IMG/VR virus record: IMGVR_UViG_3300020446_001812
Span: 1 to 64,000 of that record
Strand: one strand, 5' to 3'
DNA length: 64,000 nucleotides
From: a virus
Part shown: positions 40,819 to 44,670 of the stretch, piece after piece
Layout: every line of letters begins with the position of its first letter
How positions within the stretch are numbered: the first letter of the stretch is position 1
Made by a program: the position numbers and the translations under genes
The notes under the pieces: model-generated
Told to the model about the DNA's origin: nothing
Database searches by the model: none
The model's input: only the letters and a program-made list of their open reading frames with translations

Positions 40819-41732
40819 AGGTTATAGATTATGATATAATATATCTATCATATGATGAACCCAATGCAGAAAAAAATTATGCTGACCTGTTAACGAAAGC
40901 ACCTTGGGCAAAACGTGTGCATGGAATCGAAGGATCAGATGCGGCACACAAGGCCTGTGCAGAATTATCTGAAACTGATAGGTTTATAACTGTTGACGGT
41001 GATAATATTATTAGAGCAGATTTCTTACAACAAGAATTAAATATTTCTAATGATGTTAAATTATCAGAAAGTGTAATTAGTTGGTGCGGAAAAAATTCTA
41101 TAAATGGATTAATGTATGGTAATGGTGGGTTAAAGTGTTGGCCTAAAGAATATGTATTAAATATGCGTACACATGAAAACGCAGATCCAAATAATGAAGC
41201 AGCTCAGGTTGATTTTTGTTGGGATTTGAAATACATTCAACAAAACAGTTGTTATTCAGATGTATATAACAATGCAACACCTCAACAGGCTTGGAGAGCT
41301 GGATTTAGAGAAGGTGTCAAGATGGCTCTTGATAGAGGAGTAAAACCTAGTGTTGAGGACTTTTTAAAAGGACATTGGAAAAACTTACATAGACTATGGA
41401 TATGGTTAATGGTAGGGTCTGATGTTGATAACGGATTATGGGCAATATATGGTGCCCGAGAAGGATTGGTTAAAACTATGTTAACGGATTGGGACTTTGT
41501 TAACGTTAGAGATTTTAAATATTTAAATAATTTATGGAAAGAAAAAGAAAAAGTAGATTCGCAAACTATGTTATTAGAAGCAATAGAAATATTAGGAGCA
41601 TCATTAATTGATAGTTTAGATATACCTATAGGACAAATGCCATTTGATGAACAGCAAAGTAAGTTTTTCAAGACTGTTTATCAAAATCCTAGTAGGAATC
41701 CAAAACAACAATTTGTAATAGACCCGGAATGA
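40815..41732 (+). CDS. GT-A fold glycosyltransferase-like protein
   Basis: YLSYDEPNA, RVHGIEG..AAH, FITVDGDN DxD motif, YGNGGLK, AWRAGFREG.K. Confidence 0.65.
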   Translation: MKVIDYDIIYLSYDEPNAEKNYADLLTKAPWAKRVHGIEGSDAAHKACAELSETDRFITVDGDNIIRADFLQQELNISNDVKLSESVISWCGKNSINGLMYGNGGLKCWPKEYVLNMRTHENADPNNEAAQVDFCWDLKYIQQNSCYSDVYNNATPQQAWRAGFREGVKMALDRGVKPSVEDFLKGHWKNLHRLWIWLMVGSDVDNGLWAIYGAREGLVKTMLTDWDFVNVRDFKYLNNLWKEKEKVDSQTMLLEAIEILGASLIDSLDIPIGQMPFDEQQSKFFKTVYQNPSRNPKQQFVIDPE

Positions 41733-43063
41733 TCGATAATTTTCAACAGGTTAAAACAGAACTAGATAATGTAGGTTGCGGATTTTGCCTTGCTAAATGG
41801 ACGCAAGTTACAATTCATTTATCTTCCGGCATCACTCATAGTTGTCATCACGTAGGTGCTCATAAAATACCCCTTGATGAACTTAAACTAAATCCTAATG
41901 CATTACATAATACAAAAGAAAAGAAATTGCGTAGGAAAGAAATGCTTAACGGCGAACGTCCTAAAGAATGTGATTACTGTTGGAGAATTGAAGACAACAC
42001 TACAGAATATAGTGACAGAGTTCTAAAAAGTTCAAGGTCTTGGAGTCAAATAGATAAAGATAAAATATTACAAAATAATTGGGATGAAGATATATATCCT
42101 AGATATGTAGAAATAAGTTTTTCAAATGTTTGCAATTTTAAATGTGCATACTGTGGACCTCCTTTCAGTAGTAAATGGACAGAAGAAGTAAAATCATTAG
42201 GACCTTATAAATTAAAACAAAAACATTATAATGGAATTAAAAGCACAGAAGTTCCTTATACTAATAAAGAAGAGAATCCGTATATTGATGCATTTTGGAA
42301 ATGGTTTCCAGAATCAGTAAAACACATGAAAGTGTTTAGAATTACAGGAGGAGAGCCACTTTTATCTAAACATACATTACCTGTAATACAATATTTAATA
42401 GATAACCCACATCCAGATTTAGAATTTGCAATTAACACAAATGCATGTCCTCCGGATATTCTATGGAATATTTTTGTAGATAAAATTGTTGAATTAGAGA
42501 ATAATAAATCTGTTAAAAATTTTACTTTATATACAAGTGCTGAAAGTTACGGCAGTCAAGCAGAATATGTTAGAGATGGAATGGATTTTGATTTGTTTGA
42601 AAAAAATTTAACACATTTTATACAAAAAACAAAAAGGTCGAGAGTAACAATAATGAGTGCATTTAATATATTAAGTTTGCCTACATTGAAACCTTTTATA
42701 AGATGGTCAAATAAATTAAAAAGACTTTCGAGAGGCAGAGTGTTTTTAGATTTTGCATATGTAAGGCATCCAGAATTCTTAGATGTTAAAATTGCAGATA
42801 AAGATTTAATAGATCAGTATATTAAACCTGCTGTAGATTATATGATTGAAAAGGATGTATATACGGATTATGAAATATTTAAACTAGAAAGAATATATAA
42901 AGATTGTATTTCTAAATTAGAAAAAGAGTTTGATTTCAAATTAGAAAAATATCAATTTTACCAATTTGTAAATGAATACGACAAGAGACGTAATAAAAGT
43001 TTTTTGTTAACATTTCCAGAACTAAAAAACTTTTATAAAAAATGCGAGGCCTATTATGTATGA
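41729..43063 (+). CDS. radical SAM protein with N-terminal twitch-like Fe-S domain
   Basis: CNFKCAYC motif, ITGGEP; N-terminal CLAKW...SCHH...CDYC. Confidence 0.9.
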   Translation: MIDNFQQVKTELDNVGCGFCLAKWTQVTIHLSSGITHSCHHVGAHKIPLDELKLNPNALHNTKEKKLRRKEMLNGERPKECDYCWRIEDNTTEYSDRVLKSSRSWSQIDKDKILQNNWDEDIYPRYVEISFSNVCNFKCAYCGPPFSSKWTEEVKSLGPYKLKQKHYNGIKSTEVPYTNKEENPYIDAFWKWFPESVKHMKVFRITGGEPLLSKHTLPVIQYLIDNPHPDLEFAINTNACPPDILWNIFVDKIVELENNKSVKNFTLYTSAESYGSQAEYVRDGMDFDLFEKNLTHFIQKTKRSRVTIMSAFNILSLPTLKPFIRWSNKLKRLSRGRVFLDFAYVRHPEFLDVKIADKDLIDQYIKPAVDYMIEKDVYTDYEIFKLERIYKDCISKLEKEFDFKLEKYQFYQFVNEYDKRRNKSFLLTFPELKNFYKKCEAYYV

Positions 43064-43739
43064 TATAGCATTTATAAGTTATAATGAAAAGCAAGCTGAT
43101 AAAAATTGGGAAATATTATCTAGTAAATTCAAATATGCCAAAAGAACGCACGGAGTAAAAGGTATACATCAAGCACATATAGAAGCGGCTAAAAAAGCAT
43201 TTACTCCAATGGTTTGGTTTGTAGATGCAGATGCTGAAATAAAAGAAGATTTTGATTTCAGCTATATTCCGCCAAGAAAAGATAGAGATGCTGTGCATGT
43301 ATGGAGAAGTCAAAATCCTATAAATGATTTAGAATATGGATACGGAGGCGTAAAACTTTTTCCAAGAATAGCTACTATAAATGTAGACGTTAATAAACCA
43401 GACATGACAACAAGTATTAGTAAAAAGTTTATACCTATGCATACTATAAGTAATACAACGATGTTTAATGTAGATGAATTTAGTACATGGAGAAGTGCAT
43501 TTCGAGAATGTGCAAAATTAGCAAGTAAAACAATTGATAGACAAAACGAGGAGGAAACAAATGCAAGACTTAAAACTTGGACAACCGTGGGACACACTAG
43601 AAAGTTTGGTGAATATGCGATTCGAGGTGCTTACGATGGTATGGAGTTTGGCCTTTCTAGGGGGGCTGATCTTCGGTTAATAAACAATTACGAATGGTTA
43701 AAGGAGCAGTTTGATGCAAACACAAGAATTATTAGATAA
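43056..43739 (+). CDS. GT-A fold glycosyltransferase-like protein (paralog of 40815)
   Basis: FISYNE, THGVKGIHQAH, WFVDAD, YGYGGVKL, WRSAFRE..K. Confidence 0.65.
   Translation: MYDIAFISYNEKQADKNWEILSSKFKYAKRTHGVKGIHQAHIEAAKKAFTPMVWFVDADAEIKEDFDFSYIPPRKDRDAVHVWRSQNPINDLEYGYGGVKLFPRIATINVDVNKPDMTTSISKKFIPMHTISNTTMFNVDEFSTWRSAFRECAKLASKTIDRQNEEETNARLKTWTTVGHTRKFGEYAIRGAYDGMEFGLSRGADLRLINNYEWLKEQFDANTRIIR
43561..43680 (+). CDS. nested +1-frame small membrane protein (39 aa)
   Basis: GAGGAGG RBS (43548-43554), 6 nt, then ATG. MQDLKLGQPWDTLESLVNMRFEVLTMVWSLAFLGGLIFG*, with a hydrophobic C-terminal helix. Host-frame codons are atypically G/C-ending across this span. Confidence 0.55.
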   Translation: MQDLKLGQPWDTLESLVNMRFEVLTMVWSLAFLGGLIFG

Positions 43740-44670
43740 ATTTGAAATACTTTATCCAAATGTTGCTGATTTGCGTAGGGCTTACACTGATAAAGATTTA
43801 AGTAGTATTTTTAGATTACTAGATGCAAACGATGATTTACGCAAAGCAGTAATGGAAGAAAACTTACATAGTATATTTAGAATCATAAAAAATTATGATG
43901 TAGAAGAATTACGAAAAGCAGTCACAGAAAAAAATTTACACAGTATTTTCAGACTTGTAGATGACGAAGATTTACGTAAGTTTTTACTAGAGGATAATAT
44001 ATACAAATTATGGCCTTTACTACGTAGATTTACAAATACACAATTTGTAGATGCATTTAAAAGTTTTTTTATTAATAATATTGAAATTGACAATGATTGT
44101 TTTAGCAGAGGACAATTATTAAGTAAACAATGGTTAATTAAGGAATTGTTAAAAATTAATAAAAATTTAGGAACAGTGTATCTTTGTGCAGGATGGTATG
44201 CTACACTTGCAACAATGTTATTTGAAAGTAATATAAAGTTAGATAAAATTAGATCTTTTGATATAGATGAAACTTGTGTGCCTATAGCAAAAATATTTAA
44301 CAAGCCTTGGTTAAAAGAAAACTGGAAATTCCAAGCATCAACTATAGATATAAATGATATAGATTATAGAGAACACACGTATCAAGTAACAAGAGCAGAT
44401 GGTACTTCCTGCTCTGTTACTGATCAATGCGATACTGTTATAAACACAAGTTGTGAACATATTGGAAATTTTTCTAAATGGTATAACAATATTCCTGCAA
44501 ATACAATACTTGTGCTTCAAAGCAATAATTTTAATGAAGTGGAGGAACATACAAATTGTGTCAATAATATAGAAGAATTTGACAACATGACACCTATGCA
44601 AGAAACTTACTATAAAGGTGCACTTGAACTAGACAAATATACGAGGTACATGAAAATTGGATATAAATAA
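43714..44670 (+). CDS. class I SAM-dependent methyltransferase-like protein with N-terminal helical repeats
   Basis: VYLCAGWYATLA (motif I variant), RSFDID, DTVINTSCEH. AAGGAG RBS before ATG 43714. Confidence 0.65.
   Translation: MQTQELLDKFEILYPNVADLRRAYTDKDLSSIFRLLDANDDLRKAVMEENLHSIFRIIKNYDVEELRKAVTEKNLHSIFRLVDDEDLRKFLLEDNIYKLWPLLRRFTNTQFVDAFKSFFINNIEIDNDCFSRGQLLSKQWLIKELLKINKNLGTVYLCAGWYATLATMLFESNIKLDKIRSFDIDETCVPIAKIFNKPWLKENWKFQASTIDINDIDYREHTYQVTRADGTSCSVTDQCDTVINTSCEHIGNFSKWYNNIPANTILVLQSNNFNEVEEHTNCVNNIEEFDNMTPMQETYYKGALELDKYTRYMKIGYK
43768..44013 (+). repeat. four degenerate 63-72 bp coding repeats (D/E-LRKA...NL.SIFR)
   Basis: Units start at 43768, 43834, 43906 and 43969: DLRRAYTDKDLSSIFRLL / DLRKAVMEENLHSIFRII / ELRKAVTEKNLHSIFRLV / DLRKFLLEDNIYKLW. 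Confidence 0.8.

Follow-up and report, generated by a model that had tools for sequence, protein, structure and literature searches.

Comparative evidence for a nested +1-frame gene, probably encoding a membrane-anchored microprotein, within a glycosyltransferase-like gene of a marine phage

Can a glycosyltransferase-like gene of a large phage contain, on the same strand and in another reading frame, a second gene? This question is raised by a 64,000-nucleotide stretch of DNA (positions 1 to 64,000 of IMG/VR virus record IMGVR_UViG_3300020446_001812; hereafter, the window) from an uncultured marine phage, the virus record being 106 kb long and an estimated ~30% complete. A first-pass annotation of this stretch had proposed that a short open reading frame (ORF) lying in the +1 frame of a gene for a glycosyltransferase-like protein (hereafter, the host gene) is led by one of the strongest ribosome-binding sites of the window, is subject to dual-coding constraint, and encodes a peptide that ends in a hydrophobic helix. 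Comparison with homologous host genes indicates that positions 43561-43680 very probably correspond to a real gene encoding a membrane-anchored microprotein. The elements involved are as follows.

43056-43739, + strand: host gene, encoding a 227-residue GT-A-fold glycosyltransferase-like protein
43548-43554, + strand: Shine-Dalgarno (SD) sequence GAGGAGG, formed by host Glu codons GAG GAG G(AA)
43555-43560, + strand: spacer AAACAA, six nucleotides, between the SD sequence and the ATG
43561-43563, + strand: ATG start of the nested ORF, straddling host codons AAT|GCA (Asn-Ala)
43561-43680, + strand: putative nested +1-frame gene, 39 sense codons followed by TAA (43678-43680)
43621-43677, + strand: C-terminal transmembrane segment (peptide residues 21-39), predicted from hydropathy

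The SD sequence, spacer, ATG, 39-codon ORF and stop were all found where the first-pass annotation had placed them. The frame of the nested ORF is indeed +1 relative to the host ORF (offset 505, or 1 modulo 3), and a second in-frame TAA (43681-43683) directly follows the stop. The ribosome-binding site is among the strongest in the window, in that only 11 of 2389 ATGs, that of the nested ORF included, are preceded at a suitable spacing by an SD match of at least 6 nucleotides. When ATG-initiated ORFs of 25-80 codons with an SD match of at least 5 nucleotides were considered, the nested ORF proved to be one of seven in the window, and the one encoding the most hydrophobic segment. The hydrophobic C-terminal tail was likewise recovered, with the Kyte-Doolittle 19-residue maximum (KD19) of the window peptide being 1.74, over residues 21-39. 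The claim that the host gene turns to rare codons across the overlap also held, as the G+C content at third codon positions is 0.35 over host codons 165-207, as compared to 0.16 over host codons 1-164 and 0.19 in the window. The corresponding codon usage values in the window are 12.6% for GAG, 15.7% for CTT, 8.4% for GTG, 4.6% for ACC, 5.3% for GCG, 6.5% for CGA, 11.5% for AGG, 1.6% for CGG and 4.3% for GGG.

Since it is because of related sequences, and not because of the window alone, that the nested ORF exceeds chance, the bulk of the evidence comes from a codon alignment of 95 distinct homologous host genes from IMG/VR and metagenome contigs, the products of which share 47-95% amino acid identity with that of the window. 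As null model, synonymous codons were shuffled within each gene, such that both the host protein and its codon usage were preserved. Over host codons 169-207, 50 of the 95 homologs present an open +1 frame, as compared to the 3.8 expected, with 114 +1-frame stops being observed where 232 were expected. For each of 27 representatives, the probability of an open frame under such shuffling was between 0 and 0.14. In the rest of the host gene, the same statistic yielded observed-to-expected ratios of approximately 1 (0.6-1.4 per 13-codon window), while in those lineages lacking the ORF, the +1 stop ratio was 0.95, as predicted by the null. Moreover, many homologs sharing only 59-66% identity with the host protein present an ATG-led +1 ORF of 38-45 codons with the same end point and a hydrophobic tail. 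The first 14 loci considered had suggested chance persistence of the open frame limited to close relatives, a view reversed by the wider sampling.

The depletion of stops is specific to frame, as the +2 frame and two of the antisense frames were not depleted over the overlap (ratios 1.16, 1.66 and 1.05). The antisense frame in phase with the host codons (rc0) presented 27 stops over host codons 169-207 in the ORF-bearing lineages, where 95 were expected (ratio 0.28); this is because the sense +1 frame avoids TTA and CTA. Still, an antisense stop, arising from host TTA, CTA or TCA, is present in about half of the sequences. In a more conservative test, which serves as a partial correction for shared ancestry, only those codons differing within 10 pairs of sequences were resampled, with the probability that all remained open being approximately 10^-8.6.

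The ends of the nested ORF are maintained as well. Counting back from host Trp175, which is invariant, one encounters an ATG at a distance of 6-11 codons in 47 of 49 ORF-bearing homologs (18.2 expected). In 27 of the 49, this ATG is accompanied by an SD match of at least 5 nucleotides, as compared to 2.0 expected and none among the other lineages. The SD sequence is, moreover, spelled by different host codons in different clades, namely GAG-GAG-G, GAA-GGA-G and AAA-GGA, with host codon 165 being GAG in 23 of the 28 Glu codons found at this position in ORF-bearing lineages, against a baseline of 13-16%. At the other end, the stop, likewise maintained by selection, sits at a host Leu-Ile-Asn motif, where the stop-forming ATA is used for Ile209 in 46 of 53 sequences of the ORF lineages but in only 17 of 42 others.

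Codon choice within the host gene offers a further view of the same constraint. Host-synonymous diversity falls to 0.70-0.78 of expectation at host codons 163-210, and does so only in the ORF-bearing lineages. Because the ORF-bearing group was defined by its lack of stops, the test was repeated with codons for Leu, Ile, Val and Met, which are prone to yield stops, left out. This gave a ratio of 0.77 over the overlap, at least 0.96 in every other 43-codon window, and 1.03 in the other lineages. Individual host positions at which the two groups differ include the following.

Host Leu172: CTT or CTC in 45 of 53 sequences of the ORF lineages; TTA in 24 of 42 of the other lineages
Host Val178: GTG in 27 of the ORF lineages; GTA in 13 of the other lineages
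Host Ala192: GCT in 49 of 53 of the ORF lineages; GCA in 18 and GCT in 13 of the other lineages
Host Gly199: GGC in 28 and GGG in 18 of the ORF lineages; GGA in 20 of the other lineages

Host Glu197 is likewise GAG in the ORF lineages. Over host codons 187-207, corresponding to that half of the nested ORF encoding the predicted transmembrane segment, A occupies the third position at a frequency of 0.05 in the ORF lineages, as compared to 0.40 in the others, while third-position T rises to 0.55 in the ORF lineages. The host third position is the second position of the +1 codon, where A would specify a polar residue or a stop; the loss of A is thus the pattern that a transmembrane helix demands.

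The predicted peptides, 38-45 residues long across the homologs, share a common organization, with a polar and often Lys-rich N-terminal portion of some 20 residues being followed by a C-terminal helix with small Gly, Ala or Ser positions. The helix is uniformly hydrophobic rather than amphipathic. Transmembrane segments were called by Kyte-Doolittle hydropathy alone, using a threshold of 1.6. All 23 representative peptides passed, with KD19 values of at least 1.63 and only 0-6 residues following the segment. Hydropathy of the +1 product was above that of the shuffled sequences. When only shuffles with an open frame were admitted to the null, this still held for 19 of 19 representatives, 15 of them reaching p<0.05. 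By hydropathy, therefore, the peptides present the features of a tail-anchored protein, namely, a single C-terminal transmembrane helix with little beyond it and a short N-terminus. No lipobox, signal peptide or periplasmic domain was found in the nested peptides, and Cys is absent from the window peptide and from 18 of 23 relatives.

There is thus strong evidence, drawn from the alignment, that in approximately half of the 95 sampled host genes selection maintains the open frame, the ATG (usually together with an SD sequence), the stop and the hydrophobic character of the last ~19 residues. The core of what the first-pass annotation had proposed, namely, a hidden +1-frame gene for a C-terminally anchored membrane peptide, is as such supported by sequence comparison. 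The alignment of homologs it had called for revealed retention of ribosome-binding site, ATG and open frame far beyond the synonymous-shuffle expectation across the ORF-bearing lineages, as well as reduced host-synonymous variation confined to the overlap and to those lineages. The transmembrane prediction it had suggested was borne out in that the tails exceed both threshold and null. The roles it had put forward for the peptide, in anchoring of the glycosyltransferase machinery, exclusion or lysis control, are best regarded as guesses. It had also held that stops in the frame or loss of the ribosome-binding site or ATG among homologs, together with normal synonymous divergence, would speak against a gene; stops in the frame and lack of the ATG were encountered in more distant homologs.

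Several points weigh against the assignment of a gene. Within the window alone, the nested ORF is not beyond chance. The sequences compared are related, such that the tests are not fully independent, and the paired test corrects for this only in part. With the ORF-bearing group being defined by absence of stops, some of the contrasts are partly circular; the non-circular versions of those contrasts still hold. Two ORF-bearing homologs (L039 and L068) have no ATG, and approximately one third of the ORF-bearing homologs have no clear SD sequence. The peptide of the window is itself the least hydrophobic of the family, close to the 1.6 threshold, AT-rich genes tend to encode hydrophobic sequence in their +1 frame, and part of the conservation of the peptide is imposed by conserved host residues (R-L-x-T-W-T-T). 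Translation of the nested ORF is deduced from evolutionary signatures alone. Finally, the window peptide matched no family in Pfam or PHROG, 19 of 23 relatives had no match in PHROG, with the other four each giving one weak and uninformative single-member hit (E 0.0012-0.083), and the best score against the ESM Atlas was 0.78, below a useful level; lacking a family match, the peptide offers support for no particular function.

Other sequence collections provided the following observations. Five database proteins (P0121-P0125) match the peptide profile; these appear to represent the nested ORF itself, called as a gene, and were not counted as independent evidence. The metatranscriptome runs listed contain next to none of the nested-ORF stretch, which was met only in DNA contigs of marine metagenomes. 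In two marine runs, contigs join position 43537 to position 43710, skipping 172 nucleotides that include the entire nested ORF; as the sides of this joint span only 24-29 nucleotides, such contigs probably come from other organisms.

Could the open frame nonetheless reflect something other than a gene? Were it a chance ORF, one would point to a host segment rich in Gly, Ala, Glu, Arg and Ser and hence poor in stop-prone codons, with AT-rich third positions yielding a hydrophobic +1 frame and the ORF merely being retained among relatives. The presence of seven SD-led small ORFs in the window, the derivation of the SD sequence from a conserved host E-E-E motif and of the stop from the L-I-N motif, and the stops found in more distant homologs all fit such an account. 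It is, however, largely refuted by the alignment and appears extremely unlikely, given the number of open frames relative to expectation, the result of the paired resampling, and the fact that, in the ORF lineages alone, the shuffling null is surpassed in hydropathy, ATG, SD sequence and synonymous constraint alike. It is also very unlikely that a non-coding constraint, whether imposed by a conserved RNA structure, by an internal promoter or by a signal used in translating the next gene, is responsible, with the open +1 frame being a by-product. Among close relatives, nucleotide identity does peak (0.93-0.97) at 43476-43595, partly upstream of the ORF, and the stretch lies 35-180 nucleotides ahead of the start of the next gene. 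However, the host motif that is best conserved, W-R-S-A-F-R-E-C, falls in the upstream part of this peak, as does a recombination breakpoint (see below), while RNAalifold found no conserved structure (-1.14 kcal/mol, 3 pairs, no covariation). Moreover, the stop depletion is specific to the +1 frame, and the loss of host third-position A from only the transmembrane-coding half, like the conserved ORF length and stop, is a property of protein-coding sequence.

A further alternative holds that the +1 frame is entered from the host frame, by +1 frameshifting or transcriptional slippage near CTT-AAA-A, to yield a minor, membrane-anchored glycosyltransferase isoform with the transmembrane tail in place of its C-terminus. 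Host Leu172 is almost always CTT or CTC in the ORF lineages, and slippage at known +1 sites, such as those of prfB and Ty1, occurs on CUU. In sequences of the window type, a run of A follows the CTT, and one database protein (P0045, 205 residues) crosses from the host frame into the +1 frame at exactly this point, after ...NARLK. P0045, however, comes from a single contig and presents further indels in its tail, such that a sequencing or assembly error is probably at play, although its form is that expected of a frameshifted product. Nor does frameshifting predict the strong enrichment of an ATG and SD sequence at the right spacing. The SD sequence lies 17 nucleotides from the CTT, rather than the ~3 nucleotides that stimulate a +1 shift, the codon that follows is a common one (AAA or GAA) and not a stop or hungry codon, no slippery motif is common to the clades, and the use of CTT is fully accounted for by avoidance of TAA or TGA in the +1 frame. 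Frameshifting is accordingly considered quite unlikely. A nested gene with its own start thus remains the preferred reading.

The distribution of the nested ORF was also considered. In a tree of host genes (a quick IQ-TREE reconstruction, the deep nodes of which are poorly resolved), the ORF is found in all rows of one 14-row clade, in 29 rows of a 33-row clade and in a few other rows. This pattern requires 4-9 changes of state, with the number of gains and losses being uncertain. The ORF was absent from homologs at 40-60% identity, from homologs in metagenome-assembled genomes (MAGs) of Bdellovibrionia, from a paralog within the window and from several phage clades, so that the nested gene is, on this sampling, lineage-restricted and not universal in the host family. 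The host frame, by comparison, is represented in many phages as well as in MAGs of Bdellovibrionia and is, judging from this spread, the older and much more widespread of the two. Since the deeper homologs, those of Bdellovibrionia, the in-window paralog and several phage clades are without it, the ORF most likely arose by overprinting in one branch of phages and was subsequently lost a few times. A search for a stand-alone small transmembrane ORF near homologs lacking the nested ORF returned nothing convincing. In addition, one homolog (L017) resembles the lineage of the window in its upstream part (0.87-0.89 nucleotide identity) and the lineage of L002-L004 in its downstream part (0.72), over 43176-43680. 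It is accordingly a natural recombinant, with the switch occurring at approximately 43536-43596, inside the most conserved stretch.

What, then, is the protein in the gene of which the ORF is nested? The host protein aligned with the Pfam GT2 family (PF00535) with 20.7 bits (E 4e-4), below the gathering cutoff of 23.3, and had no match in NCBIfam. Nor did a sequence profile built from 60 family members match any PDB entry. When an AlphaFold (AF2) model of the protein (predicted local distance difference test score of 90) was compared by Foldseek, the top PDB matches (5hea, 9omm, 2p72, 7msp and 9nyf) were all GT-A glycosyltransferases, found with probabilities of 0.9-1.0 but TM-scores of only 0.31-0.42. 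Both Asp residues of a DxD-like D57-A-D59 motif are invariant in 60 family members. The protein is thus a distant GT-A relative, for which "glycosyltransferase" is fair as an assignment of fold. The overlap covers host residues 169-208, where the model places helices at 165-177 and 185-200. The family comprises 4737 proteins at E of at most 1e-20. Among cultured phages, blastn with the host gene found nothing, while tblastn found a single match, in Ralstonia phage RsoM2USA (40% identity).

The window is ~97% coding, with its genes almost all on the + strand, and genes neighboring the host gene encode radical SAM, nitroreductase-like and cytidylyltransferase proteins. Two genes upstream, at 40830-41570, lies a paralog of the host gene (32% identity, E 2e-21), the +1 and +2 frames of which are full of stops, with no nested ORF. 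In five homologs (L005-L008 and L013), the glycosyltransferase-like domain is preceded by one to four more divergent copies within one ORF, the products being 353-634 residues long; these multi-domain homologs also do not contain the nested ORF. The gene on the other side is as follows.

43714-44670, + strand: downstream gene for a 318-residue protein, with its ATG at 43714 and an AAGGAG at 43701-43706, in the frame of the nested ORF with three stops between

Although the two share a frame, these three stops show that the 318-residue gene does not extend upstream into the nested ORF. The product of the latter matches no family, and its N-terminal third contains approximately three tandem repeats of ~23 residues with the motif L-H/S-S-I-F-R. 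The repeat portion is unaligned among close relatives (a gap at 43776-44016).

As for how the nested gene would operate, ribosomes are proposed to initiate independently at the internal SD sequence and ATG, on the same mRNA that serves the host gene, to produce a peptide of 38-45 residues. The polar N-terminal ~20 residues would remain in the cytoplasm while the C-terminal helix would insert into the inner membrane, giving a tail-anchored topology, with the gene having presumably been born by overprinting within one phage branch of the host family. Our best guess, offered with low confidence, is that the peptide serves as a tail-anchored inner-membrane adaptor or modulator, or as an effector. 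With so little of the peptide lying outside the membrane, a partner could be bound only through the short cytosolic part or by helix-helix contact. By analogy to systems considered below, the peptide may bring to the membrane either the soluble glycosyltransferase or the pathway by which the island tailors glycans, a suggestion that must be considered tentative. That the microprotein is an obligate membrane-tethering subunit of the very glycosyltransferase the gene of which contains it is rather unlikely.

About equally likely as the adaptor role, and thus similarly tentative, is the possibility that the peptide acts on the membrane or on a membrane protein of the host cell independently of the glycosyltransferase, i.e., that spare coding space gave rise to a stand-alone membrane effector. 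Such an effector might modulate a host membrane protein, exclude superinfecting phages, affect the timing of lysis or dissipate the membrane potential. This proposal competes only with the adaptor function; it is contained within, and does not detract from, the confidence placed in the gene itself. The products of the nested phage genes E of phiX174 and L of MS2 act on the envelope, and the conserved Gly, Ala and Ser positions of the helix would permit helix-helix packing. The classic nested phage gene Rz1 of lambda also acts on the envelope (PMC6139136). Overprinting-born proteins are, moreover, typically accessory and lineage-restricted, with small single-transmembrane peptides being the easiest of +1-frame products (PMC8227390). 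On the other hand, a pore is made less likely by the lack of amphipathic character in the helix, the peptides contain neither lipobox, signal peptide nor periplasmic domain, and the locus is an enzyme island behind tail-fibre genes, with no lysis cassette. The ORF, furthermore, has never left this host gene, no stand-alone copy having been seen near ORF-free homologs.

If the nested gene is as proposed, several consequences follow. Few well-supported examples of genes nested on the same strand come from large dsDNA phages, and gene callers forbid such an arrangement. Were this family typical, phage and metagenome annotations would systematically miss such genes. Since the host family is very large (4737 proteins) and appears in the marine metagenomes of many studies, the missed microprotein would be widespread in marine samples. 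The locus also offers a clean case for gene birth by overprinting, with ORF-bearing and ORF-free sister lineages being comparable codon by codon, and does so in a large genome, where strong pressure on size is not expected. Frame-specific depletion of stops together with a conserved SD sequence, ATG and stop, combined with loss of A and gain of T at third positions over the transmembrane-coding half, could be applied generally in screening for hidden microproteins of the membrane. Were the peptide to work with the glycosyltransferase, this would represent a new way of building a two-subunit enzyme. If tethering were true, a membrane-associated glycan-tailoring enzyme would owe its catalytic subunit and its anchoring subunit alike to one stretch of DNA, read in two frames.

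Among known systems, the closest in genetic arrangement is that of phage lambda, where Rz1, the outer-membrane spanin (o-spanin), is encoded in the +1 frame of Rz, the inner-membrane spanin (i-spanin) (PMC6139136). As with Rz1, a short gene lies wholly inside the distal part of a longer phage gene on the same strand, in the +1 frame and with its own start, encodes a product that (here by prediction) targets the envelope, and belongs to a class that gene callers routinely miss. Rz1, however, is a lipoprotein that has a lipobox Cys and is secreted to the outer membrane, and the gene that contains it encodes its binding partner and is part of a lysis cassette. The nested peptide considered here, by contrast, has a C-terminal transmembrane helix and neither signal peptide nor lipobox, and its host gene encodes a GT-A-fold protein in an island of tailoring enzymes. 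An embedded spanin of the Rz/Rz1 type was hence ruled out, there being no lipobox, no i-spanin encoded by the host gene and no lysis cassette.

The E gene of phiX174, found within D, and the L gene of MS2 encode overprinted single-gene lysis proteins of 75-91 residues, with E inhibiting MraY. Here too, a small membrane protein is encoded through overprinting in the +1 frame of an older gene, and the nested peptide resembles MS2 L in that its N-terminal half is polar or basic while its C-terminal half is hydrophobic. E and L, however, come from tiny ssDNA and ssRNA phages that are under strong genome-size pressure and have known roles in lysis, whereas the nested peptide is only 38-45 residues long, belongs to a large dsDNA phage and presents no sign of lysis function.

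In terms of the proposed adaptor role, the parallel is with DPM3 and DPM2, which hold DPM1, a GT2 enzyme without a transmembrane segment, at the membrane (PMC7694566). As with DPM3 and DPM1, a very small membrane protein is found alongside a soluble enzyme of the GT-A/GT2 type that has no transmembrane segment of its own; unlike the situation here, DPM3 contains two transmembrane helices and is encoded by a separate gene. There is no sequence relationship between the nested peptide and these proteins. If tethering were true, the arrangement would be the phage counterpart of DPM1/DPM3, created through overprinting and with a single mRNA providing for both partners. In Listeria, the small membrane protein Prli42, comprising a short cytosolic N-terminus and a C-terminal anchor, holds the stressosome, and the nested peptide is predicted to be similarly organized. 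To our knowledge, no known adaptor is encoded inside the reading frame of its own partner.

Lastly, AcrZ, MgrB, TisB and Hok are bacterial small membrane proteins or type I toxins encoded by stand-alone genes, usually with an N-terminal or central transmembrane helix. The nested peptide resembles these in its length (30-50 residues in that group), in having a single transmembrane helix and in being of a kind often missed in annotation. Type I toxins, however, come with antisense RNA partners, of which no sign was seen at the nested ORF. The nested ORF would instead appear to belong with the overprinted, nested phage genes that encode small envelope proteins.

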